DNA of 51,167 nt from an archaeon (GCA_038046645.1 JBBSVU010000006.1:87414-138580); one strand, 5' to 3'; shown: positions 8,450-23,866, numbered from the stretch's first letter. The notes: generated by a model not told the origin, from the sequence alone. A program made the numbers and translations.

Positions 8450-8967
8450 ACACTTACCTCTGCCAAATTTTTTTCATTTTTTAATTTGCAGTTATTTGGG
8501 TCATTGCTACAATCTGAAATATCTTTTTTTTCTAGTGCCCCTTTATGCAATAAAATAATCCTTTTTTCTGAATAAATATTCTGTGCATGAGTATCATTAT
8601 CCTTGCACGCATTCATTTGGGCCCCTTGCAGCTTAATGCGGCATTTGTAATTTGGAGGTATGCCTAATTTGCCCTTTTCAATATTCTTTAATTTGTCTGC
8701 GTCAATGCAGTTATTAAGCAGGGTTAGCCCTGTCCCATCCTCTGAAATTAAATCGCAAGAAATATCTGGCAGTGAAACAAGAAGGTTAGCTGCATTATGC
8801 CCAACTGTCTTTAGTTCATTAAAAACCTGTTCTTGCTTTAGGTTATAACTCTGAGTTTCTATTATTTGTATGGTGAGGCCTAAAACAAGCGTGGCTATTA
8901 TCAATGCAACTAATGCATCAATGCTGAATATCTGCCCCTTTTCGTGTAATTTATTTTTTAATCTCAA
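8440..8967 (-). CDS. Minor pilin-like protein (class III signal peptide)
   Basis: KG|QIFSIDA followed by a hydrophobic stretch. Probable TTG start at 8967 after a GGTGA SD (ORF track start 8979). Confidence 0.7.
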   Translation of the reverse strand: MRLKNKLHEKGQIFSIDALVALIIATLVLGLTIQIIETQSYNLKQEQVFNELKTVGHNAANLLVSLPDISCDLISEDGTGLTLLNNCIDADKLKNIEKGKLGIPPNYKCRIKLQGAQMNACKDNDTHAQNIYSEKRIILLHKGALEKKDISDCSNDPNNCKLKNEKNLAEVSVWK

Positions 8968-9352
8968 GGTAGTCACCACATTTTAAAGCAGTCTTTTGCA
9001 GGTTTGCTATCCCGGCAGTATGCTTAACACTGCTTGCAATTTGATTTTCCTTAAAAACCGAAGTTATGGTTATTTCATCCGGAAGTATCCTTATTTCGCA
9101 GCCAGTTTCTATGTCTCCAAAAACAATTACATCAGGGATTGAATACTTTACCAGGAAGCTTTGCCCATCTTCCAAAGATTTGCCCATTGCTAGAATTTCA
9201 GCAATATTATTCCCGATTTCTTTCTGCTGGTTTATTACGCTAATTTTGCTCTGTGTTTCGTTCATCCCGGAGATAACTGATTGCATAGCGCCCGCAAATA
9301 CAAAAGTGATAATTATTGCAAGTATTAAATCAATGCTTATTTGCCCTTTCAT
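8951..9352 (-). CDS. Minor pilin-like protein (class III signal peptide)
   Basis: MKG|QISIDL followed by a hydrophobic stretch. Confidence 0.75.
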   Translation of the reverse strand: MKGQISIDLILAIIITFVFAGAMQSVISGMNETQSKISVINQQKEIGNNIAEILAMGKSLEDGQSFLVKYSIPDVIVFGDIETGCEIRILPDEITITSVFKENQIASSVKHTAGIANLQKTALKCGDYLEIKK

Positions 9353-9461
9353 GCTGTCTTATATATTAAAAATTAGTTCTATTTAAACATTGTGAGCATG
9401 GAATCTGCTTCTTTTAGGTGTAGCAGAAAGAGAATATCAAAACTATTTTTTTGCCTTTGTT

Positions 9462-10658
9462 TTAATCTTTTGCAATTTTCAGCAATTTAGGCATTAAATC
9501 TAGGCCAAGAATCATGCCAATGCTGCCATTTAGGCAATCCCTTTCTGAGAAATGATTTACTTTATCTTTTATTCCACCAAAAATTAGCAATGGGGTGGGG
9601 TCTGCAGAATGGTCCTTTAATGTGCAAGGCGTGCTGTGGTCTCCAGTAATCGCAATCACAGTATTTTTCAGGTTAATTATTTTTTTAAATGAATTATCTA
9701 TTTTTTCAATGAATTTCTTCTTCTCTATGCATTTTCCATCATGCCCCAAAATATCAGCCCCTTTTATATGGGCAAAAACAAAATCATATTTCTTTAATGC
9801 TTTAATTGCCGCATTTATTTTAGCACCAAGGTCTGTTTCTAATGTGCCGGTTGCACCCTTTACATTTAATACTTTCATGCCAACACTTTTTGCTACCCCT
9901 TTATACAATCCGCCGCCAGCAATGCAGCAGGCCCTTAACCCATATCGCTCTTTGAATGAAGGGATTTTTTTATAGGTTCCAGCACCCCTTAACAATAAAT
10001 AATTTGCTTTGGGCTTTCCTTCCTTCTCCCTTTTTTTGTTGAGGCTTGATTCATCCAAAATCTTGCTTGCCATAATTAAGAATTTGTTTAAAATAGTAGC
10101 AGTAAATATTGCTTCTTTATCTTTATTTTCTGCTTTTATCTCAAAAGGCTTTACCGCTGTTTTATGCGGGTCATTACTTGAAATATTGCTGCATAAACCC
10201 TTTCCTCTCATAATCAAACAAGCCCTGTGCGAGGTTCCAGCTTTCAATATGAATCTTATTCCATCAATTTCAATTCCGTTTAGTTTCTCAACAAATAATT
10301 TGACTGATTTGATTCTTCCTGCTCTCCTATCAGTTATTAATCCTGAGGAATCAACAGTTGCAAAGTTTACCCTGAATGCGACATCTTCGGGTTTCATTTT
10401 CATCTCAAGCCCAGCAGCCTCCAAAGGGCCTCTTCCTGTGTAATATTTATCGAGCGGATAGCCGAATATGCTTAGGTGTGCATTATCTGATTCTGGAATT
10501 ACTCCCTTTCCGACTGAATTCATCAATCCGCAAGCACTGTTTTTGGCTAGAATATCCATATTGGGAGTTTTTGCCGCTTCTAGTGGCGTTTTGTTTCCAA
10601 GCACAGGTGAGGGCCTATCACCTACCCCATCCAAGATTACCAAAAGTATTTTTTTCAT
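9462..10658 (-). CDS. apgM: 2,3-bisphosphoglycerate-independent phosphoglycerate mutase (archaeal type)
   Basis: ILDGVGDRP, TPLEAAKTPNMD, PESDNAHL, GRGPLEAAG, DRRAGRI, TGDHSTP. Confidence 0.95.
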   Translation of the reverse strand: MKKILLVILDGVGDRPSPVLGNKTPLEAAKTPNMDILAKNSACGLMNSVGKGVIPESDNAHLSIFGYPLDKYYTGRGPLEAAGLEMKMKPEDVAFRVNFATVDSSGLITDRRAGRIKSVKLFVEKLNGIEIDGIRFILKAGTSHRACLIMRGKGLCSNISSNDPHKTAVKPFEIKAENKDKEAIFTATILNKFLIMASKILDESSLNKKREKEGKPKANYLLLRGAGTYKKIPSFKERYGLRACCIAGGGLYKGVAKSVGMKVLNVKGATGTLETDLGAKINAAIKALKKYDFVFAHIKGADILGHDGKCIEKKKFIEKIDNSFKKIINLKNTVIAITGDHSTPCTLKDHSADPTPLLIFGGIKDKVNHFSERDCLNGSIGMILGLDLMPKLLKIAKD

Positions 10659-11023
10659 CCTAACACTTTGAAATCAATTTTTTTTCCTTTAGAATCAAAC
10701 ATTTTTATTGTATCCATATTAAAGGGGAAGGAGATTATTAAATGTATTTTTCCAAATTTTGGAAAACTATGGATATCCTCATCCGAAGGTTCATTTGAAT
10801 GCGAAGGATGGCTATGCACTGAGCCAATTATATTTCTGTCAATAGGTTTTGATTCCATATATATTGATGACATGCTATCACCATACACTGAATGCGTTAA
10901 TATTAATTCATCAATGCAATCATTTTCCATCCTGCTGCCTAATAGCCCTATAAATTCCTTAGGGTAGGCGTTCCTTGCTGCATGAATAATCATCTCAATT
11001 ACCTCTTTTTTTATGGAGTACAT
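10655..11023 (-). CDS. JAMM/MPN+ (Mov34) metalloprotease
   Basis: YPKEFIGLL and the HSHPS-x4-PSDED JAMM motif. Confidence 0.9.
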   Translation of the reverse strand: MYSIKKEVIEMIIHAARNAYPKEFIGLLGSRMENDCIDELILTHSVYGDSMSSIYMESKPIDRNIIGSVHSHPSHSNEPSDEDIHSFPKFGKIHLIISFPFNMDTIKMFDSKGKKIDFKVLG

Positions 11024-11065
11024 AAAGACAAAACATCAGAAAAGAATATTAATTCCTAATGCTTA

Positions 11066-11545
11066 GTGTTTATGAACAATATGATTTCTGAAACAGAAAT
11101 AGTAGTAAGGCTATCAGCAGCCTTGCTTGTTGGAGTATTCTTTGGCCTTGAACGGGAGTTAAGCAAAAGAGGGCAAGGCTATGCCGGTTTAAGGACTCAT
11201 GCATTAGTTGCATTAGGATCCGCAGTTTTTACCTTAGCCTCAATCTCCTTTGATAGTGGGGTAGTAGATCCATCAAGGATTGCGGCAGGGATTGTTACTG
11301 GAGTAGGTTTTCTTGGTGCTGGAGTAATCTACAAAGGCACTAACTATGTTAAAGGCCTTACAACAGCAGCAAACATCTGGACAGTTTCTGCAATAGGCAT
11401 GGTTGTCGGATTAGGATTATATTCGATTGCAGCTTATGCTACCGGCCTTTCAATTATTATCCTAATTTTGGGGAAATTTTTCGAGAAAAAAGTTCTGAAG
11501 GAAGATATTGAAGAAGATGGGGATAACTTCTCTTTCAACTCATAG
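11066..11545 (+). CDS. MgtC/SapB family membrane protein
   Basis: GLERE, AGLRTH, DPSRIAAGIVTGVGFLGAG, GLTTAA. Confidence 0.93.
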   Translation: MFMNNMISETEIVVRLSAALLVGVFFGLERELSKRGQGYAGLRTHALVALGSAVFTLASISFDSGVVDPSRIAAGIVTGVGFLGAGVIYKGTNYVKGLTTAANIWTVSAIGMVVGLGLYSIAAYATGLSIIILILGKFFEKKVLKEDIEEDGDNFSFNS

Positions 11546-12727
11546 CGTCAGATAATAAATTGCGATAGGCAATATCAGGAATGCCATGCATAGGCTTCTT
11601 TTAATTCCTGTTTTTATTGTAACCATGCCTATGGCTGTTGCAGTCCCAGCAATTAATAATCCTTTTCCGCCGGCCATAGCCATTATCACAACTATTACAA
11701 AAATTAGTATTGCAATATTCAATTTTTTGTAATTAATCTTATTTATCTTATTCAAAATTCTTTTTGCAATAAATATTGTTATGAAAACACCAAAGGAAGC
11801 AGCAATCAATATTGTAGCTATTATCAACAATATTTGGCTTTTTTCCAGAAAAATCAGATTTTGTATTGCAACAGCAGGTCCACTTCTTCCCTTACCTATG
11901 GAATAAAGTGCAAAAAATGAAAACATTAAATTTACGGTATTTATTCCGCCTATCATTATCAAATAGCTTTGTGTTCTCATCCTGCCATAAAATTGCCTTA
12001 CTAAAAATGCTGCTTGGTTAGGCCCTAACCCTGGAATAAGTGCGACAATTGAACCGCCAAAAACACTTAGGGCTGAGCCCTTAAATGCCTCTATTTTTTT
12101 AATGCAGATATCCTTCATTATCTGCTTTCTTGAAATAATATTCTCATTTATTGACTCAAGCAATGTGCTTATTCCAAAAAGCCCGGTTATGGCTGCAAAC
12201 AATCCATTCTCAACAGACGAGCTCCTTAATACTATCTGCCCAAGAAATCCTGATAAGAGTACAATAAGTACGGCCCACATTTTTTTATTTCCCTTTTCTG
12301 AAAGTATCATCATAAGCATTGTTGCAATTAAAATGTAACCAAAAAATTCCCGTATTTCATAAAAAAATTTTGTCCCTATGGTGAAAAAAATTGGCAGAAA
12401 TAAAAGCCCTAGCATTATCCCAAACAATCCGCCAATAACTGTCAGCATAATTGCCTTGTATGCCTGCCCCTTCATGAAATATCTGTGGCCTGGCAGCACA
12501 TTTATGAAATTGTCTTCATGCGGCGCACCAAAGCAGATGCTTGGGATAAAATCAACAAAAGAATGCACTATGCCCATTGCAATTATACATGCAGCAATCC
12601 TTATGTCTGCATTTGGCAGGTATGTTGCAAGCATAATTGAAAGCAGGTTTATGTGGATGCCTGGCAGTATGCCGCTTATTATGCCAAGAAAACAACCTGC
12701 TAAAATATATGCGAGTATTTCAAACAA
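11540..12727 (-). CDS. TctA-like (archaeal DUF112) membrane permease
   Basis: SGILPGIHIN, DFIPSICFGAP, VLPGHR; many TM helices. Confidence 0.85.
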   Translation of the reverse strand: MFEILAYILAGCFLGIISGILPGIHINLLSIMLATYLPNADIRIAACIIAMGIVHSFVDFIPSICFGAPHEDNFINVLPGHRYFMKGQAYKAIMLTVIGGLFGIMLGLLFLPIFFTIGTKFFYEIREFFGYILIATMLMMILSEKGNKKMWAVLIVLLSGFLGQIVLRSSSVENGLFAAITGLFGISTLLESINENIISRKQIMKDICIKKIEAFKGSALSVFGGSIVALIPGLGPNQAAFLVRQFYGRMRTQSYLIMIGGINTVNLMFSFFALYSIGKGRSGPAVAIQNLIFLEKSQILLIIATILIAASFGVFITIFIAKRILNKINKINYKKLNIAILIFVIVVIMAMAGGKGLLIAGTATAIGMVTIKTGIKRSLCMAFLILPIAIYYLTL

Positions 12728-13076
12728 TCTCCAATCCCTCTACAATTATTTCAATCTTTCCTTTATACTTTGAAACAACGCCACAGATATTTGCAAAATC
12801 GCCTTCCTGGATTATTGCAAAATATTCCTTTTTTGGATTGAACATTATTGCTTTTATGTAATTGCCATCAAATAATGTGAAATTGATTGAGCTTGCGCTT
12901 TGTTTTACCTCAGTTATCCTGCCAAACAGCAAAACTTTCTGTCCTATTAATTCATTAGTTATTTCCCCGTTATTTTTATGAATGCATCCTCCGGTTTCTG
13001 AATAAATTGAAAGTATGATTAATCCGCAAATTGCGCAGCCTAAAGCTATCCTGATAACCCAAACATCTCTTAGCAT
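12720..13076 (-). CDS. Membrane-anchored OB-fold protein
   Basis: N-terminal TM helix, then GQKVLLFGRI...GVVSKYKGKIEIIV OB pattern. Confidence 0.7.
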   Translation of the reverse strand: MLRDVWVIRIALGCAICGLIILSIYSETGGCIHKNNGEITNELIGQKVLLFGRITEVKQSASSINFTLFDGNYIKAIMFNPKKEYFAIIQEGDFANICGVVSKYKGKIEIIVEGLEIV

Positions 13077-13135
13077 TAAAAAATTCGATTCAAAAAGGTT
13101 TAATTGCTAACCTTTCCAAATAACAACTTCTAAGT

Positions 13136-13675
13136 TTATTTTATTGCTTTCAAATCCTTGGCAATATTTATTTCTGAAAATATTTCATTTTCTAAAATCA
13201 GTATTTTCTTTTCAATCTCAGAATATTTATCCATTAATTTTTCATTAATGTGGGCATATCGGTTTTTTATGTATTTCAATCGTTCTTCCAGGGAAACTAT
13301 TTTATCATCAACAACTCGCTTATCCGCATAAAATACAATCTTTTCCTCCCAAGTATTGAGACCGTAAAGTATTTGATCCAAAACATGCTTTCTCACTATT
13401 ACTGCAATTTTATGAAAGCCTTTTTCCTTTAGGATTCTTTCCCCAATAATTCCGTGGTTTCCTTTTTTCAGGCTTTCTATTTTATCAATATCATGCAATA
13501 GGCTTGCCCTGTCTACCAAATCCAAATCAATAATTTCGCCTTTTTTAACAAGTTTTTTTGCCAAATACATGGCAACAGAATTCACTTTCAAAGAATGCTT
13601 TACAATATTATCTGAATTATTTTTTCTTATTAAATCTATGCAATGCCTTCTGCTTGGCAGCACTTCTTTCTTCAT
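13136..13675 (-). CDS. HD-domain phosphohydrolase
   Basis: HSLKV...LLHDIDK...H...EKIVFYADKR. Confidence 0.9.
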   Translation of the reverse strand: MKKEVLPSRRHCIDLIRKNNSDNIVKHSLKVNSVAMYLAKKLVKKGEIIDLDLVDRASLLHDIDKIESLKKGNHGIIGERILKEKGFHKIAVIVRKHVLDQILYGLNTWEEKIVFYADKRVVDDKIVSLEERLKYIKNRYAHINEKLMDKYSEIEKKILILENEIFSEINIAKDLKAIK

Positions 13676-13816: not shown

Positions 13817-14617
13817 ATGAGCTGGGGATTAAAGAATAGGATATCTAAAATTATTAAGCCTAAAACAGGCAAAACAGTAATGCTTGCTGTCGACCACGGT
13901 TATTTTTTAGGGCCTACAACAGGCTTAAAAAACGCAAAAGAAACAATAAGCTCTTTAGTTCCTTATGCAGATACCTTAATGCTTAGCAGGGGGATTCTGC
14001 GTACCTGTGTTGATTCCAAAATTGAAACCCCAATTGTTTTGAGAGTTTCAGGAGGAACAAGCATCCTTACTGAATTATCTAATGAAGGCATTACCTGTGC
14101 AATGGATGATGCAATAAGGTTGAATGCAGTAGGCGTAGCCTTATCTATTTTTGTTGGAGCCCAGTATGAAAGGCAGACTTTGCTTAATCTTGCAAAATTG
14201 GTTGATGAAGGTGAGCAATTCGGCATGCCTGTATTGGCAGTAACTGCCGTTGGAAAAGATATGGCAAGGGATGCACGTTATTTGGGGTTGGCATGCAGGA
14301 TAGCTGCAGAGTTAGGCGCTAATATTGTTAAAACATATTATTGCAAGGATTTTTCACAGGTAGTTGAATCATGCCCTGTTCCAATTGTAGTGGCAGGCGG
14401 TACCAAGATAGCAGAAAAGGAAGCATTAGAACTCACTTATAATGCAATTTCCGAAGGCGCTGTTGGCGTTGATATGGGCCGTAACATATTCCAGTCTGAT
14501 TATCCAGTAGCAATGATAAAAGCAGTACGCTCAATTGTACATGAAGGTTTTACAGTAAAGGAAGCACTTGATCTGTTTGAAAAATGCAAGAAAGAAAAAC
14601 AGAAGAAATTTGATTAA
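13817..14617 (+). CDS. lsrF: LsrF-type 3-hydroxy-5-phosphonooxypentane-2,4-dione thiolase (class I aldolase fold)
   Basis: LsrF-typical MSWGLKNR, MLAVDHGYFLGPTTGL, AVTAVGKDMARDARY, Schiff-base VKTYY, GVDMGRNIFQS; GGAGTGA SD. Confidence 0.9.
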   Translation: MSWGLKNRISKIIKPKTGKTVMLAVDHGYFLGPTTGLKNAKETISSLVPYADTLMLSRGILRTCVDSKIETPIVLRVSGGTSILTELSNEGITCAMDDAIRLNAVGVALSIFVGAQYERQTLLNLAKLVDEGEQFGMPVLAVTAVGKDMARDARYLGLACRIAAELGANIVKTYYCKDFSQVVESCPVPIVVAGGTKIAEKEALELTYNAISEGAVGVDMGRNIFQSDYPVAMIKAVRSIVHEGFTVKEALDLFEKCKKEKQKKFD

Positions 14618-14647
14618 TTTATTGTACAGTAAACTCATTTGATTTTC

Positions 14648-15679
14648 ATGGAAAAAATGAAAGTAGCAATGTATTACCGCAATAATGATGTGCGAATTGA
14701 AGAAATGCCAATTCCTGTGATCTCAGAAGACGAAATTCTTGTTAAGGTAATTTCTTCAGGCATCTGTGGATCTGATGTTCTTGAATGGTACCGCATTAAA
14801 ACAGCTCCCAGAGTTTTAGGGCACGAAATTTCAGGAGAAATAACCCAAGTCGGAAAAAAAGTAAAAAAATTTAGTAAAGGGAATAGGGTTTTTGTTTCCC
14901 ACCATGTTCCTTGCGATGACTGCCATTACTGCAAGCAAGGGCATCATACTGCCTGCGAAACTTTACATAAAACAAATTTTCATCCTGGAGGATTTTCGCA
15001 ATTTTTAAAAGTACCTAAAATAAATGTTGAAAAAGGTACCTTCATTCTGCCAAAAAATGTTTCATTTGATGATGCAACTTTTATAGAACCTTTGGGCTGT
15101 GTTGCCAGAGGCCAAAGATTAATAGATATTAAATCTGCAGAATCAGTACTTATTTTAGGCTCAGGGATTTCAGGCTTGCTGCACATAAAGCTTGCAAAAG
15201 CAATTGGAATAAAAAAGATATTTGCGACAGATATTTCCGATTACAGATTAAATGCAGCGAAGCAAGCAGGTGCAATCCCCTTAAATGCTAAGGAGAATAT
15301 TCCTGAGAAATTAAAGGTTATTAACAAAGGACTTTTGGCTGATAGGGTCATTGTTTGCACTGGTGCAAGCGCAGCAATTGAGCAAGCATTGAATTCAGTT
15401 GAAAGAGGCGGAACGATTTTATTTTTTGCAGTTCCTAAGCCTGAGGAAAAAACTTGCTTGTCACTAAGCAACCTTTGGAGGAACGAAATCACTTTAAAAA
15501 CAAGCTATGCTGCTTCCCCCCAAGACCTTAAGGAAGCCATTGTTCTGATTGAAAAAAAGAAAATAACCCTAAACGACCTGATTACACATACGCTGCCTTT
15601 ATCTGATGCACAAAAAGGATTCCATTTAGTCGCAAAAGCTGATGAATCAATAAAAGTAGTTCTGCATCCGCAAGAATAG
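14648..15679 (+). CDS. Zn-dependent medium-chain (polyol/threonine dehydrogenase-like) dehydrogenase
   Basis: GICGSD, GHE, structural Zn CDDCHYC-x7-C, EPLGC, GSGISG, Asp (TDI) indicating NAD preference. Confidence 0.92.
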   Translation: MEKMKVAMYYRNNDVRIEEMPIPVISEDEILVKVISSGICGSDVLEWYRIKTAPRVLGHEISGEITQVGKKVKKFSKGNRVFVSHHVPCDDCHYCKQGHHTACETLHKTNFHPGGFSQFLKVPKINVEKGTFILPKNVSFDDATFIEPLGCVARGQRLIDIKSAESVLILGSGISGLLHIKLAKAIGIKKIFATDISDYRLNAAKQAGAIPLNAKENIPEKLKVINKGLLADRVIVCTGASAAIEQALNSVERGGTILFFAVPKPEEKTCLSLSNLWRNEITLKTSYAASPQDLKEAIVLIEKKKITLNDLITHTLPLSDAQKGFHLVAKADESIKVVLHPQE

Positions 15680-15689
15680 CAAATTATTT

Positions 15690-16274
15690 TTATAAATATT
15701 CAGCTTTTTTATGCATTTTTAATGCTAGTTCAAATGCTTTATCACTGTTCTTTCCAAGTGCTAGAATTCCATGGTTCTTTATTGCAATGCAATTCTCTTT
15801 CCCAAGAACTTTTTTGATTTCCTTTGCCAATTCAATTGTCCCATATGGCTTTTCAACTTTTGTTTCTTTAACCCTGAGCTCTTTTGAATGCTTTAAAACC
15901 AAATCATCATGCAGATGCAGCACAACATTAATGTCTTTTCTTAATTCATAAGCAGCAGCATGCATAAAGCATTCAGAGCTTGGTTCTTTTAGGCCAATGA
16001 CTTTTACACTTTTTTTCTTCCAATCAGCAGATTTTACAAAAACAAGTTTTTTTCCATTTAGCTTTCCGATGCTTTCCTTTGTTGCATTTATCACAAAGCC
16101 GTTTTCTTTTCTGTAGCTTATATTTCCCCAGCCCATATCCCCATTAAGCTTATGCTCTGCGATTTTTTCCCCAATCTCAATTAGTTTTTTATTCAATTTT
16201 CCTTTATGGGCTTCTTTCTTTAAAAAAATAGTGTGAAATTTCACCCCAACATAGATTTCAGGCATTTTAATCAT
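15690..16274 (-). CDS. Class II aldolase/adducin family protein
   Basis: GNISYR, PSSE, HLH and NHG Zn ligands; abuts mtnA. Confidence 0.88.
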   Translation of the reverse strand: MIKMPEIYVGVKFHTIFLKKEAHKGKLNKKLIEIGEKIAEHKLNGDMGWGNISYRKENGFVINATKESIGKLNGKKLVFVKSADWKKKSVKVIGLKEPSSECFMHAAAYELRKDINVVLHLHDDLVLKHSKELRVKETKVEKPYGTIELAKEIKKVLGKENCIAIKNHGILALGKNSDKAFELALKMHKKAEYL

Positions 16275-17345
16275 TTATTTTTTAAGAATCTTTTCCAATT
16301 CTTTTATTTCATTTGGTTTGAATATCCCTTTTTCGGTTATGAAAGCAGTAATATATTTGCTCAACGTAGTATCAAATGCAGGATTTTTCGCTTTTGCATT
16401 TTTATGGGATATTGCAACCTTTTCCATTCTTCCCTTATGCATTCCCTCAACATAGAGTACTTCATCTTGGCTTCTTTCTTCTATTGGAATTTCCTTTGAT
16501 TTCAAATCAAATGTTGATGTCGGGGCTGCAACATAGAAAGGAATGCCATTCTCTTTTGCAAGAACAGCTTTTTCATATGTGCCTATTTTGTTTGCAGTCA
16601 GGCCGTTATGCGTTAATATTCTATCAGCCCCAACAATGCACATATCAATCTCGCCCTTTTGCATATAATATCCGGCAGCATTGTCTGCAATAATTGCGTG
16701 CGGGATTCCTTCATTTTCAAGTTCCCAAGCAGTCAATCTAGCACCCTGCAATCTTGGCCTTGTTTCGTCCACAAATACAAACATTTTCTTGCCATTTCTT
16801 TTTGCTGCATATATTGGTGCAATTGCAGAACCCCAATCCACAAACCCTAGCCAGCCAGCATTGCAATGTGTCAGTATCCTAAAATTATTTTTAATTAACC
16901 TTTCACCATATTGCCCAATTTTTTTTCCAGAGTTTGCGTTTGCTTCAGCAAGCATTTCTGAATCTTCCAAAGCAGCCTTTTTTGCTTCCTCAAAATTATC
17001 TGCTTTTTTTATTGCTTCAAGTACATGGTCTACGCTATAAAACAAATCATATGCTGTCGGCCTTGTTGATTTCAAGGAATCAGCAGCATTTTTCACATAT
17101 TGCAAATAATTTTTCTCATTGGCTTCACAAACTGCTTGATAAACGCCATATGCTCCGCTTATTCCAATAGCACCAGCGCCCCTTACTGTCATATTCCTTA
17201 TTGCTTCCGCAGTTTCTTTGTAATTTTTCAGGGTTACAATTTCAAACTTATGGGGAATTCTCAATTGGTTTATCATTTTTACATTTCTGCCTTCAAGCCA
17301 CAATGTTTTGTAGTGTTTTAACCCTGAATTTGTTTTAACTAGCAT
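16275..17345 (-). CDS. mtnA: S-methyl-5-thioribose-1-phosphate / 5-deoxyribose-1-phosphate isomerase
   Basis: MTVRGAGAIG, RPTA, THCNAG (catalytic Cys), DETRPRLQGARLTAWEL, GADR, NKIGT, NPAFD. Confidence 0.93.
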   Translation of the reverse strand: MLVKTNSGLKHYKTLWLEGRNVKMINQLRIPHKFEIVTLKNYKETAEAIRNMTVRGAGAIGISGAYGVYQAVCEANEKNYLQYVKNAADSLKSTRPTAYDLFYSVDHVLEAIKKADNFEEAKKAALEDSEMLAEANANSGKKIGQYGERLIKNNFRILTHCNAGWLGFVDWGSAIAPIYAAKRNGKKMFVFVDETRPRLQGARLTAWELENEGIPHAIIADNAAGYYMQKGEIDMCIVGADRILTHNGLTANKIGTYEKAVLAKENGIPFYVAAPTSTFDLKSKEIPIEERSQDEVLYVEGMHKGRMEKVAISHKNAKAKNPAFDTTLSKYITAFITEKGIFKPNEIKELEKILKK

Positions 17346-17359
17346 TTTTTCACCATTTT

Positions 17360-18418
17360 TTATTGAGAAGGATGAAGTGTTCTATATGTAATGGTATCCA
17401 AGATATCATTCGAATTTAATAAAAATCCAACATATCTCTCAAATCCAATTCCATACCCTCCCCTTAAAAGTGGTTTTTCCTGTTCAAATAATCTAAAATA
17501 TTCCTTAAAAGGGGTTAAAACATCCTGCCCTTTCTTTTGTAGAAATTCAGCAATTTTTGAGTTTCTCAATTGCTGTTTTATTCTATTACCATTCTCTTCC
17601 CTTATGGCCCCACCTATAGTTTCCCCTAACTTTGGCATTAGTAAATCAACACTATAAACTCTTTTACCATCAGCTGTTCTTTTCATATTGAAGAATTTAA
17701 GTTCAGTAGGGAAGTAAGTAACAAAAGTAGGCACATTGTTAAATTCGTTTAGAATTTGTCTTTCCTCTGCTACACCAAAATCATCCCCAAAAGCATACTT
17801 TGTTTTAGTTCTGTTTAATAGTTTAATAGCATCATCATAGCCAATTTTCACAAATCGAGTCTTGGTTATTTTCTTTAAATAATTAATATTTCCTCCAAGT
17901 AATTTTAATTGTTTAGGGCATTTATTCAGAACTTTTTTAGTTACCTGTTTGATCACTTCTTCTTCCTCTTTAATTATTTTATCTAGTGCTTTTTCAGGAG
18001 ATATGCCTTCATAGGGCCTTTCTGGTTCAATAAGTGTAAATTCAGATAATCGTCTTCCTTTGGCTTCTGGATCATCATAATTTTCTTCCCTGAAGCTGTT
18101 ATTTACTGTAAAAACCCCACGCTTTAATCTTATTACCAATGCTTCTAATTGAAGTTGTGCGCTTTGTGATAAATGTGCTTCTCGTCCATAATAATTTAGT
18201 GTGAATGAAGCATAGGGGTTTTCACAGGAACCAGCAATGTTTACCAAAGATGAAGTTGTTACTTGAGTATATCCTTTATTTGCTAAACTGTTACAAAATT
18301 CACCTAATGCAATTCCCCTAATATCTAATAGGGCATTAAATTTCTCTTTACTGAATTTTCCCAAACCCGTGGCAATCATATCAGAGTCAGTCATTATTTT
18401 TCCCATTAATATATTCAT
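17360..18418 (-). CDS. AsnRS/AspRS-like catalytic core without anticodon-binding domain (asparagine synthetase A-like paralog)
   Basis: LSQSAQL, motif 2 FREE...RRLSEFTLIE, YFP-x3-KFFNM, GETIGGAIRE, motif 3 GYGIGFER. No N-terminal OB domain. Confidence 0.8.
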   Translation of the reverse strand: MNILMGKIMTDSDMIATGLGKFSKEKFNALLDIRGIALGEFCNSLANKGYTQVTTSSLVNIAGSCENPYASFTLNYYGREAHLSQSAQLQLEALVIRLKRGVFTVNNSFREENYDDPEAKGRRLSEFTLIEPERPYEGISPEKALDKIIKEEEEVIKQVTKKVLNKCPKQLKLLGGNINYLKKITKTRFVKIGYDDAIKLLNRTKTKYAFGDDFGVAEERQILNEFNNVPTFVTYFPTELKFFNMKRTADGKRVYSVDLLMPKLGETIGGAIREENGNRIKQQLRNSKIAEFLQKKGQDVLTPFKEYFRLFEQEKPLLRGGYGIGFERYVGFLLNSNDILDTITYRTLHPSQ

Positions 18419-19042: not shown

Positions 19043-19510
19043 TTATTTGCCTTTTTTCTTAGCCCTTCCTTCTAAATCTGTTGCCTTAATCTTAAAACTA
19101 ATCGCCGCAACACCACCTAAATTAACCCTTTCAAATAATTGTGGTTTTTCTAACCTTGCATATACTGCATTTGCCCTATTCATTGGATTTGCTTTTCTGT
19201 AGTGAGTCACCAGTATGTTTGCTTTATTGCCAGAAATATTTGTAACTCTGCCCAAATCATCTCCGACAAGGACTATGCTGCCTTTTACTGCTATGTCCCA
19301 TTTTCCAATTTCAATCTCATTGAGTTGTATCATTTCTCTTTTAAGAATTTCAGCTAAAGCCCCTTTCCGTAATGGCTTTTCTTTTGTAACTTTTTTATCT
19401 ATAGCACCAAATCTACCATATGCCCTATCCCATCTTTTTAGTAATCCTGTTCCTTTAGGAGTAATAAATGTTCTAACCGTACTTTTCATTGGCCTATGCC
19501 TTAGTCTCAT
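19043..19510 (-). CDS. Highly basic hypothetical protein
   Basis: Start moved to ATG 19510 (GGAGATGG SD) because the longer ORF overlaps tRNA-Val. 155 aa, K/R-rich ends. Confidence 0.65.
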   Translation of the reverse strand: MRLRHRPMKSTVRTFITPKGTGLLKRWDRAYGRFGAIDKKVTKEKPLRKGALAEILKREMIQLNEIEIGKWDIAVKGSIVLVGDDLGRVTNISGNKANILVTHYRKANPMNRANAVYARLEKPQLFERVNLGGVAAISFKIKATDLEGRAKKKGK

Positions 19511-19528
19511 ATATCCATCTCCAATGTT

Positions 19529-19599
19529 TGGGCCCACCCGGAGTCGAACCGAGCTCATCGCTACGTCAAAGCGATATCGTGCCGATGGACCATGAGCCC
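19529..19599 (-). tRNA. tRNA-Val(GAC)
   Basis: GGGCTCA/TGGGCCC acceptor stem, TCGCT-TTGACGT-AGCGA anticodon arm, TTCGACT T-loop; CCA not encoded. Confidence 0.93.
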
Positions 19600-22492: not shown

Positions 22493-23866
22493 CTAATTAG
22501 ATTCTTTCTTGCCCTTCTTTTCAACAAGCAAATCAACAGCAATTCCCATTTCTTTGGCAAAGTTTTTCTCAAATCTGCTTAATTCATCAATCTTATTGTC
22601 AATTAGTTTTCTTCTTGCACCATATTCCTTCAATATGCCCCCAGTTTTCTTGTTCAAATCCTCAATACTTTTGTTGAACTTCTCTACATTTCGGTCAATC
22701 GTGCTCACAAATTGCTTTTGGAATACTGAAAGGTTCTCCTGTGCATTCTTTATCTCTTCAATCCTTGCTTCTTTCCTTATGTCTGCGACAAATTTCTTTT
22801 TGTAATTTTCCAAGTTATCAAGTATTGCCTGCTCGATAGTTTCTTCCAAAACCATTTTGTATGTCTCAAGTTCCTGTTTATCGCCTTCAAGCTGCTTTAT
22901 CTTAGCAGTTATCTTATCCACATCAATCTTTGCCCTTACCTCTTCAATCCTTTTAATTTCAAGTGAAACAGCATCAGTCAATTCCTGCCGTTTTTCATTC
23001 TGTATCTCAACAATTTTCTTTTCAGTGCTGTTAACCAAGCCTTCAACTACCTCACTTTCCAAGGAGAGCGTTCTTTCTACTCTTTGGTCTAGTTCCTGCA
23101 GATGTGATTCTATTTTTCCAACAGCCTCTTCTACCTCGCTTTTTGATTTAATTAATTCAGTATTCATATCCGCTAATATCCTATCCTTTACCTGCATTAG
23201 TTCTATTTTTTTTCGTTCTACATCATCTAAAATTTCTTTATGTTCCTGTTGCTTTAATTTAAGTTCCTCAATATTCCTTTTGATTTCAGTATTAAGATTG
23301 CCCATTTCAGTTATTTTGGAATTTATGATATCTTCGATTTCCTCAGATTTCATCGATAACTGTGAATTTACCTTTTCAATGAGCAGTGTTTTCTGTGATT
23401 CTGATACAACTGCCATCTTTTTCCTTTCTGATTCCACTGCTGCACTTACCTTTTCATCAAGTGTCTTTTCAATATCCTTCTTCAGTTTTTTCATTTCCTC
23501 TAATTTATCAGTAACAGTTACCAAAACACCCTTTTCCCATAGCCCTGAAATAGCCGGTTCAACATCCTTTGCATATTTTTCAAAAGAAAAAGCAGGTTTT
23601 GCCTGAATTGGCTGCTCTATCTTAGGTTCAATTGCACTTAATTCCTTTTCAATTACCTTGCTTAGGTTTACATTTGTTTTAACAGGTTCTTTTTCAGCAA
23701 TCTCTTCTAATGCTGTTTTTTTGAAACCACCGGCTTTTTTTATTAATTCCTTGGCTTCTTCATTACTCACGCCAATATCCTTTAGGTTAAGGATTATTTC
23801 GTCCTCTGAAACATTTAAGTCAATCAGCTTCTTTATTGAAGTTAGCATCAATTTTTCTCTGTCCAT
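22493..23866 (-). CDS. Long coiled-coil protein of unknown function
   Basis: 457 aa, E/K/L-rich heptads after a small helical N-domain and a Pro-containing linker. Confidence 0.75.
   Translation of the reverse strand: MDREKLMLTSIKKLIDLNVSEDEIILNLKDIGVSNEEAKELIKKAGGFKKTALEEIAEKEPVKTNVNLSKVIEKELSAIEPKIEQPIQAKPAFSFEKYAKDVEPAISGLWEKGVLVTVTDKLEEMKKLKKDIEKTLDEKVSAAVESERKKMAVVSESQKTLLIEKVNSQLSMKSEEIEDIINSKITEMGNLNTEIKRNIEELKLKQQEHKEILDDVERKKIELMQVKDRILADMNTELIKSKSEVEEAVGKIESHLQELDQRVERTLSLESEVVEGLVNSTEKKIVEIQNEKRQELTDAVSLEIKRIEEVRAKIDVDKITAKIKQLEGDKQELETYKMVLEETIEQAILDNLENYKKKFVADIRKEARIEEIKNAQENLSVFQKQFVSTIDRNVEKFNKSIEDLNKKTGGILKEYGARRKLIDNKIDELSRFEKNFAKEMGIAVDLLVEKKGKKESN

Follow-up and report, generated by a model that had tools for sequence, protein, structure and literature searches.

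A four-gene cluster at positions 13817 to 17345 of a 51,167-nt stretch of archaeal DNA (JBBSVU010000006.1:87414-138580 of assembly GCA_038046645.1, hereafter the window) consists of two gene pairs that converge on one another. One pair encodes an LsrF-type Schiff-base enzyme and a zinc-dependent dehydrogenase of the medium-chain dehydrogenase/reductase (MDR) superfamily, and the other encodes a class II aldolase and the isomerase MtnA:

13817..14617, plus strand: LsrF-type class I (Schiff-base) enzyme, short form; 266 aa, DeoC/LacD fold (Pfam), NF006081.
14639..15679, plus strand: Zn-dependent medium-chain dehydrogenase, polyol/threonine-dehydrogenase type; 346 aa, TTG start, ADH_N and ADH_zinc_N domains.
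15680..15689, no strand: gap of 10 bp separating the two convergent gene pairs, from the coordinates of the open reading frames (ORFs).
15690..16274, minus strand: class II (metal) aldolase, fuculose-phosphate aldolase superfamily; 194 aa, PF00596 at 84.4 bits.
16275..17345, minus strand: MtnA, 5-methylthioribose-1-phosphate / 5-deoxyribose-1-phosphate isomerase; 356 aa, TIGR00512 and NF004326.

The ORF coordinates confirm the arrangement described in a first-pass annotation of the window, in which lsrF and the dehydrogenase gene on the plus strand converge, across the 10-bp gap, on mtnA and the aldolase gene on the minus strand. Only 21 bp separate LsrF from the dehydrogenase, and the aldolase and MtnA ORFs abut. 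LsrF and this Zn dehydrogenase form a conserved same-strand pair across many bacterial and archaeal phyla, which is a new fact. We propose, with a probability of roughly 55%, that the pair constitutes an oxidative exit from the salvage of 5'-deoxyadenosine, in which 5-deoxyribulose-1-phosphate would be oxidised at C4 and then cleaved with CoA to give dihydroxyacetone phosphate (DHAP) and acetyl-CoA.

The window LsrF scores 424.7 bits against NF006081, the NCBIfam equivalog model for the LsrF thiolase (cut-off 297; E. coli LsrF itself scores 559.9), is 56% identical to the E. coli protein and matches PDB 3gkf with an E-value of 3.3e-95. For the E. coli enzyme, PMC2728841 gives Lys203 as the Schiff-base residue, together with Asp57, Tyr205 and the phosphate-binding glycines Gly226, Gly227 and Gly253, and Asp251 as a residue replaced by Ala in the nearest paralogues. 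In E. coli numbering, D57, K203, Y205, G226, G227, D251, M252 and G253 are shared without exception by all 64 orthologues in the alignment, the equivalents in the window protein including D26, K172 and D219. By its RefSeq product name, E. coli LsrF is a CoA-dependent thiolase, not an aldolase. A 2014 paper by Marques reportedly presents LsrF as a thiolase, going by its title. From its sequence, we infer that the window enzyme keeps thiolase chemistry on 3-hydroxy-2,4-pentanedione-5-phosphate. Its alignment begins at about residue 32 of the E. coli protein (position 26 of the NF006081 model), the first ~31 residues, which form the N-terminal domain-swap segment of the decamer, being absent. Compared to the LsrF of the E. 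coli/Salmonella lsr operon (PDB 3gkf, 4p2v), the window enzyme is thus alike in overall identity, Schiff-base Lys, Asp57, Asp251 and phosphate glycines, and the reaction and products proposed for it are identical. It differs in having no N-terminal extension, in its archaeal host, in the absence of lsrK, lsrG, lsrR and lsrACDB from the neighbourhood of the gene, and in being partnered by a Zn dehydrogenase instead of the LsrG isomerase. The nearest paralogue family is that of the ADH synthase MJ0400 (139.7 bits), and the window LsrF does not pass the ADH-synthase models (190 against 299). Relatives of the window protein number at least 8000 at E <= 0.001, the best 120 being 67-100% identical to it, and hosts among the matches listed include Diapherotrites, Odinarchaeia, Nitrososphaerales, Thermoplasmata, Deltaproteobacteria and Elusimicrobia, among others.

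The dehydrogenase lies outside the characterised equivalogs (Tdh, GatD, IolM, idonate dehydrogenase and others), as none of its 23 NCBIfam matches (release 20) reaches the cut-off; the best, threonine dehydrogenase (Tdh), gives 173.3 bits against 380. Inosose dehydrogenase follows at 144 bits, GatD at 134, AdhP at 104 and Ahr at 80. Alignment places the catalytic zinc ligands at C43, H62, E63 and E150 and the structural zinc ligands at C92, C95, C98 and C106. The Rossmann motif GxGxxG at 174-179 (G174/G176/G179), together with D198, would favour NAD over NADP. Nine residues (Y12, Y13, R19, W50, Y51, H88, H89, C154 and R157) are invariant in 53 orthologues of at least 42% identity and absent from E. 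coli Tdh and GatD. Of these, His88 may correspond to a residue of the substrate pocket in horse liver alcohol dehydrogenase. Among solved structures, the closest are those of ketose reductase (1e3j), sorbitol dehydrogenases, Tdh, xylitol/arabinitol dehydrogenases and GatD, with ketose reductase and the sorbitol dehydrogenases outscoring Tdh and GatD. Most of these relatives oxidise a secondary alcohol, and Tdh and GatD oxidise the penultimate carbon. The window enzyme is a putative 5-deoxyribulose-1-phosphate 4-dehydrogenase.

Conservation of the pair was followed in 80 LsrF loci from species genomes and 80 from metagenomes. Most of the genomes are metagenome-assembled genomes (MAGs), so that absences here and below mean 'not found'; the ORF calling used for clustering was crude, and related genomes are non-independent. 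Of the 80 genome loci, 74 have a homologue of the window's dehydrogenase no more than 2.5 kb from LsrF, as do 62 of the 80 metagenome loci. Where at least 1.3 kb flanks LsrF on both sides, the figures are 57/60 and 29/31, respectively. Every pair is co-oriented (74/74 and 62/62). This adjacency is far beyond chance, and the pairing is obligate. Three of the roomy genome loci are without a dehydrogenase; two of these genomes carry a 50-53% identical orthologue elsewhere, and the third (G046) has none at E <= 1e-30. When the ORFs of the 80 genome loci and the window were clustered, the dehydrogenase cluster covered 68 loci and the LsrF cluster 64, the next cluster covering 14 of 81. These counts are too low, the crude ORF caller having lost some genes in GC-rich DNA. 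There is no other conserved neighbour, the flanks being occupied by genes for ribosomal proteins, phosphoribosyl pyrophosphate (PRPP) synthetase, peptidyl-tRNA hydrolase, SecA and similar proteins. The single cluster pictured in the first-pass annotation is real as a cluster in the window; the pair is actually a self-contained module of many phyla that usually lies away from mtnA.

The archaeal hosts of the pair belong to Nitrososphaerota, Thermoplasmatota, Asgard and DPANN, and many bacterial phyla have it too. The Nitrososphaerota partner is a divergent MDR, 26-37% identical to that of the window and placed upstream of LsrF, which keeps H88, H89, C154 and R157. The Nitrososphaerota loci are L006, L013, L030, L041, L045, L046, L060, L072, L075 and L080, and in these ten the identity to the window dehydrogenase amounts to 32-37% in the alignment and 28-37% in tblastn.

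A single bacterial class, that of genome G036, was sampled more densely (201 genomes, including the unpublished G349 and G443, both MtnA-positive and LsrF-negative). LsrF is above cut-off in 39 of these genomes, 26 with the short form found in the window and 13 with a long form that has the N-terminal segment. Orthologues of the dehydrogenase (48-58% identity, against 35-40% for paralogues) are present in 23 of the 26 short-LsrF genomes, always on the same contig and no farther from LsrF than about 0.7 kb, compared to 0 of the 13 long-LsrF genomes and 2 of the 162 LsrF-free genomes (Fisher p 8e-25).

Twelve long-form loci (L192-L203), all from one bacterial class, were examined separately. In ten of them the long LsrF lies beside a protein of about 700 aa in which a class II aldolase-like domain is fused to a short-chain dehydrogenase (SDR); the fusion scores 848.9 bits against NF006194 (cut-off 686) and the long LsrF 478 bits against NF006081 (for example L201:3964-6069 and L201:6170-7072). 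Since the long LsrF adjoins this aldolase-SDR fusion, the SDR represents a third kind of dehydrogenase accompanying LsrF. A ribulose-phosphate 3-epimerase homologue stands between the two genes in two loci, and mtnA was not found within about 6 kb of the long LsrF in any of the 12. That the long form is of the autoinducer-2 (AI-2) type was considered and rejected, as LsrK would be expected and is above cut-off in 0 of the 201 class genomes. A quick maximum-likelihood tree (78 rows, SH-aLRT support only) splits all LsrF rows from five sub-cut-off paralogues (support 100), joins E. coli LsrF and the long form in one clade (99) nested among the short forms, and places the Nitrososphaerota rows closest to the outgroup. 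The nesting passes through several nodes with 82-97 support and a long outgroup branch, and a position of the E. coli/long-form clade inside the short forms is a lead, not a result.

The window MtnA exceeds the cut-offs of TIGR00512 (359.1 against 279) and NF004326 (390.8 against 271), whereas its 204.9 bits fall short of the 314.1 required by the ribose-1,5-bisphosphate isomerase model; its closest structures are the MtnA proteins of T. maritima (1t9k), P. horikoshii (6a34) and B. subtilis (2yrf). The window MtnA is not the isomerase of the RuBisCO pathway, because the genome contains a separate, second e2b2 paralogue (contig C2:65295-66242) whose best match is the ribose-1,5-bisphosphate isomerase model. 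None of the 19 NCBIfam matches of the class II aldolase reaches its cut-off. The protein keeps the catalytic Glu (E73) and the metal-binding His triad (H92, H94 and H155) of E. coli FucA, its best match in PDB at 39.5 bits, with DrdA (6btd) at 25.3 bits. It is probably the DHAP-shunt aldolase acting on 5-deoxyribulose-1-phosphate and methylthioribulose-1-phosphate, judging by these residues and its place beside mtnA.

The genome from which the window comes (1.17 Mb in 25 contigs, 89% complete) supplies the earlier steps. The methylthioadenosine (MTA)/5'-deoxyadenosine phosphorylase whose presence the first-pass annotation had left to be confirmed is encoded on a separate contig (C3), at 297.4-297.5 bits against TIGR01694 (cut-off 274.85), and there are 11 ORFs for radical S-adenosylmethionine (SAM) enzymes. 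An ORF for an ADP-forming acetyl-CoA synthetase-type protein (C11:26632-27291) could allow acetyl-CoA to be turned into ATP. Together with a RuBisCO-family ORF (C17:33596-34429) and the second e2b2 paralogue, it fits a nucleoside-scavenging fermenter.

A genomic tie between the pair and MtnA is seen outside the window. Three of the 80 genome loci and four of the 80 metagenome loci have mtnA within 2.5 kb of LsrF, and so have two more genomes of the window's phylum. For a single-copy gene that near, chance would give roughly 0.3-0.7 loci in 160, compared to the seven observed. The mtnA-adjacent loci collapse to five lineages. The first is the window genus (G058, L107 and L108), with an identical four-gene layout. 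In the second (G067), LsrF and the dehydrogenase are convergent on a ThiC-MtnA operon (L101; G067:C37, 3542-7710), ThiC being a radical-SAM enzyme that releases 5'-deoxyadenosine. The third is an Aenigmatarchaeota genome (L067), and the fourth consists of L056, which is the same as L147 (99% identical DNA), and the related L161, all in the order MtnA, two small ORFs, LsrF, dehydrogenase. The fifth is a Sterolibacterium MAG (L049, from G046) in which a radical-SAM gene, LsrF, the phosphorylase MTAP, a phosphoribosyltransferase and MtnA lie on one strand (8504-13382). In addition, the pair in two Actinomycetota loci (L007 and L028) has genes for S-adenosylhomocysteine (SAH) hydrolase and for a PNP-family phosphorylase as neighbours.

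The window's phylum was represented by 215 genomes, of which six have LsrF above cut-off and 41 have MtnA above cut-off. MtnA is found in five of the six LsrF genomes and in 36 of the other 209 (Fisher p 0.001, with related genomes non-independent); the sixth LsrF genome is 67% complete. The dehydrogenase adjoins LsrF in all six, and in G066 and G215 MtnA is beside MTAP on a contig other than that of LsrF. The linkage of lsrF-dehydrogenase pairs to mtnA elsewhere, which the first-pass annotation had asked about, is therefore found both as adjacency in the five lineages and as co-occurrence within the phylum. A wider set comprised the 50 genomes to which loci L004-L053, the first of the 80, belong. 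MtnA is above cut-off in 48 of the 50 (47 of 49 without the unpublished G029, whose locus L032 is also in the pairing counts), a RuBisCO-family protein is found in only three, and a protein of the class II aldolase fold, which includes MtnB, Ald2 and DrdA, in only 23. Twenty-four of the 50, G029 not among them, have MtnA and none of the MtnB, Ald2/DrdA and RLP families. We know of no other families that consume the MtnA product. An unusual expansion, with 11-24 matches to the class II aldolase fold per genome, was seen in the large Binatia/delta-type genomes G009, G014, G015, G017, G018 and G024, and likewise in G028, G029, G036, G037, G044 and G048. In the window's phylum, a class II aldolase is present in 32 of the 41 MtnA genomes, often adjoining mtnA; LsrF occurs in three of the nine MtnA genomes without this aldolase and in two of the 32 with it (p 0.06), those two being the window genus.

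These observations can be joined in one pathway. 5'-Deoxyadenosine from radical-SAM enzymes, and probably also methylthioadenosine, would be cleaved by the phosphorylase from contig C3, and MtnA would isomerise the sugar-1-phosphate to 5-deoxyribulose-1-phosphate. From there two exits would operate. One is the DHAP shunt already described, in which the class II aldolase would release DHAP and acetaldehyde, in parallel with the second exit and perhaps on the methylthio analogue. In the second, new exit the Zn dehydrogenase would use NAD to oxidise the C4 hydroxyl beside the terminal methyl group, giving 3-hydroxy-2,4-pentanedione-5-phosphate; LsrF would then bind the carbonyl adjacent to the phosphate as a Schiff base and pass the acetyl group to CoA, so that the products would be DHAP and acetyl-CoA, with NADH from the oxidation. 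5-Deoxyribulose-1-phosphate and the diketone substrate of LsrF differ by one oxidation of a secondary alcohol. Methylthioribulose-1-phosphate may be accepted by the same two enzymes. The scheme is compatible with all of the tests described here.

The logic of the oxidative exit parallels that of Tdh and Kbl, whose genes are adjacent in E. coli: a Zn MDR oxidises a CHOH beside a terminal methyl group, and CoA-dependent cleavage of a carbon-carbon bond then gives acetyl-CoA. Unlike in our scheme, the substrate of Tdh is an amino acid and Kbl is a pyridoxal phosphate (PLP) enzyme unrelated to LsrF, and the window dehydrogenase fails the Tdh model (173 against 380). A precedent for the dehydrogenase step is GatD, galactitol-1-phosphate 5-dehydrogenase (PDB 4a2c), a Zn MDR matched by the window enzyme in both PDB and NCBIfam, which oxidises the penultimate carbon of a sugar phosphate with the phosphate at the far end. 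The differences are that identity to GatD is 29%, that its model is failed (133.7 against 550) and that its substrate is a six-carbon polyol phosphate. The DHAP shunt and 5-deoxyribose salvage (MtnP/MtnK, MtnA and Ald2; DrdK, DrdI and DrdA), as set out in PMC6079011, share with our scheme the entry through a phosphorylase and MtnA, the intermediate and the product DHAP, and the class II aldolase of the shunt is also in the window; the proposed last step differs in being an oxidation and CoA cleavage to acetyl-CoA and NADH instead of a release of acetaldehyde. In the route proposed for M. jannaschii from 5'-deoxyadenosine to 6-deoxy-5-ketofructose-1-phosphate (PMC6079011), which is associated with the ADH synthase MJ0400, a deoxy-keto sugar phosphate derived from 5-deoxyribulose-1-phosphate likewise feeds a DhnA-type Schiff-base enzyme, but that route is biosynthetic, transaldolase-like and CoA-free.

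Several points weigh against an oxidative exit of this kind. At least 150 of the 160 loci have no mtnA near the pair, which sits among housekeeping genes. The co-occurrence of the pair with mtnA anticipated by the first-pass annotation is supported in the window's phylum, but the bacterial class carries no information: MtnA is present in 187 of its 201 genomes (185 of 199 without G349 and G443), and its presence in 26 of 26 short-LsrF genomes (p 0.22) is uninformative because it is nearly universal there. The class was accordingly rejected as support, and part of the figure of 48 in 50 reflects the same near-universality. MtnA was not found in two LsrF genomes, G071 (67% complete) and G020, and only fragments of it in G005. 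The Sterolibacterium genome with LsrF, MTAP and MtnA in one locus is the one in which no dehydrogenase orthologue was found at E <= 1e-30; another oxidoreductase may serve there, or the route may differ. The window genus retains the class II aldolase, so that its pathway would be complete even if the oxidative exit were missing. The complementarity of aldolase and LsrF in the phylum is a weak test, given its p value of 0.06 and the non-independence of related genomes. Finally, the activity of the dehydrogenase clade is a prediction, and Arg52, considered as a ligand for the substrate phosphate, was dropped because sorbitol dehydrogenase and ketose reductase have an Arg there too.

The strongest rival keeps the salvage setting and changes the chemistry. 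The LsrF-like enzyme would act as a class I aldolase in the DHAP shunt, cleaving 5-deoxyribulose-1-phosphate or methylthioribulose-1-phosphate to DHAP and (methylthio)acetaldehyde, which the dehydrogenase would reduce, giving ethanol or methylthioethanol. Both chemistries would break the bond at one and the same position relative to the phosphate, and the link to MtnA, the absence of a class II aldolase from 27 of the 50 LsrF genomes and the complementarity within the phylum are predicted equally well. The aldolase-SDR fusion beside the long LsrF, of a RhaEW type that we take to be an aldolase joined to a lactaldehyde dehydrogenase, would be a precedent for an aldehyde-level dehydrogenase near an aldolase. 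What disfavours an aldolase relative to a thiolase is that the window protein is orthologous to LsrF and has its complete active site, including the LsrF-specific Asp251, and that RefSeq names the E. coli enzyme a CoA-dependent thiolase. Its partner, moreover, is nearer to secondary-alcohol and polyol enzymes (Tdh 173, inosose dehydrogenase 144, GatD 134 bits) than to AdhP (104) or Ahr (80), an aldehyde reductase would not need such strict pairing on the same strand, and the pair would be redundant in the window genus, which already has a class II aldolase. We regard this explanation as unlikely, although it is the main competitor of the thiolase.

A further step down in probability is a housekeeping module acting on some other phosphorylated deoxy-ketose, for example bacterial 1-deoxy-D-xylulose-5-phosphate (DXP) or a damaged sugar phosphate, with the mtnA neighbour incidental. 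Most loci have no mtnA nearby and have ribosomal protein, PRPP synthetase and similar genes as neighbours, co-occurrence with MtnA is uninformative in the bacterial class, and DXP oxidised at C4 would, on chemical grounds, give the diketone of LsrF. Archaea are not known to make DXP, yet the pair is found in Nitrososphaerota, Thermoplasmatota, Asgard and DPANN. An incidental neighbour also fits poorly with the five lineages in which the pair adjoins mtnA, MTAP or ThiC, against 0.3-0.7 loci by chance, and with the near confinement of the pair to MtnA genomes in the window's phylum.

A reversed, biosynthetic use is improbable. LsrF would condense acetyl-CoA with DHAP and the dehydrogenase would reduce the diketone, giving a 5- or 1-deoxy pentulose phosphate that would serve as a precursor or a signal. 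The nearest paralogue family, the ADH synthase MJ0400 (139.7 bits), does use a deoxy-diketo sugar phosphate in biosynthesis, and a route in M. jannaschii from 5-deoxyribulose-1-phosphate to 6-deoxy-5-ketofructose-1-phosphate has been proposed (cited in PMC6079011). Thiolytic cleavage is the favoured direction of such reactions, however, no consumer of the product is conserved near the pair, and the pair's dependence on MtnA within the phylum suggests that the sugar is supplied rather than needed.

The genes of AI-2 metabolism were sought in the window's genome and beyond. Searches of the genome with the E. coli K-12 LsrK and LsrG proteins gave no match, nor did those with Pfam FGGY_N and ABM, and tblastn with eight Lsr proteins returned only LsrF and generic ABC ATPases. 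The absence of lsrK, lsrG, lsrR and lsrACDB from the window, as claimed in the first-pass annotation, thus holds and extends to the 89%-complete genome. No lsrK, lsrR, lsrB, lsrC, lsrD or lsrG was found within 10 kb of LsrF in the 80 genome loci, and the LsrK and LsrG models are above cut-off in none of the 50 LsrF genomes; as a control, hmmscan of the K-12 proteins gave 1000.9 bits for LsrK and 191.8 for LsrG, the control genomes giving none above cut-off. An lsrK or lsrG elsewhere that would explain LsrF was accordingly found neither in the window's genome nor, above cut-off, in the 50 others. The known route leads from AI-2 to the LsrF substrate only where the kinase and the isomerase are present. 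Processing or quenching of the AI-2 quorum signal, as the database name implies, has in its favour the orthology to E. coli LsrF and the lsrF candidates in nearly all genomes of ammonia-oxidising archaea, called AI-2 processing genes in PMC11442133, but with no LsrK or LsrG above cut-off in the 50 LsrF genomes, no LsrK above cut-off in the 201 of the bacterial class and no lsr gene found within 10 kb in the 80 loci we reject it as hardly credible.

The neighbours of the cluster in the window include RNase P p30, L15e, NcsA and an archaeal phosphoglycerate mutase, by which the host is an archaeon. On one side of the cluster is a stand-alone OB-fold anticodon-binding domain of 118 aa (12720-13076, minus strand), and on the other, 4.3 kb away from it, a 352-aa catalytic core of a class II aminoacyl-tRNA synthetase (17360-18418, minus strand), which is AsnRS-like (177 bits against 414) with weak matches to asparagine synthetase A. 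Possible identities for the two are a split AsnRS/AspRS and an AsnA-type synthetase accompanied by an orphan OB domain. No small cysteine-rich ORF precedes LsrF in the window. The ORFs at 22493-23866 (457 aa) and 19043-19558 (171 aa), both on the minus strand, fall into no family of Pfam or NCBIfam at the thresholds applied. A promoter and terminator scan of the window, with models that exclude archaeal promoters, showed no excess over shuffles (23 and 3 hits against 20.8 and 3.7).

5'-Deoxyadenosine is produced by every radical-SAM enzyme and inhibits these enzymes. According to PMC6079011, the known gene clusters for its disposal are far from ubiquitous and other strategies must exist; four alternatives are given there, and an oxidative LsrF route is not among them. 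In the literature searched, which excludes most subscription journals, no link of LsrF to the salvage of 5'-deoxyadenosine or 5-deoxyribose or to MtnA was found among the matches listed, and nothing relevant to a route from deoxyribulose to acetyl-CoA or to the diketone by name.

Taking the family as a whole, we tentatively suggest, at somewhat less than even odds, that the main and older job of LsrF is a dehydrogenase-paired oxidative third exit of the salvage of 5'-deoxyadenosine, and perhaps of methylthioadenosine, in many bacterial and archaeal phyla, yielding DHAP, acetyl-CoA and NADH. The partner would be the Zn MDR clade, the divergent Nitrososphaerota MDR or the aldolase-SDR fusion, and the AI-2 role in enterobacteria would be a later recruitment. 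In genomes that have a class II aldolase as well, the window's among them, the trio could in addition recapture acetaldehyde onto DHAP and carry it to acetyl-CoA.

If the oxidative exit is correct, the pair would fill a gap in 5'-deoxyadenosine disposal in many anaerobic and uncultured lineages, such as the 24 of 50 genomes in which MtnA had no known partner, by a salvage route in which the two-carbon fragment is retained as a thioester, and a function would be assigned to the dehydrogenase clade. It would also correct the annotation of 'AI-2 thiolase/aldolase' genes, whose presence is being taken as a sign of quorum sensing, in ammonia-oxidising archaea among others (PMC11442133), and would suggest an origin for the enzyme with which enteric bacteria degrade AI-2.

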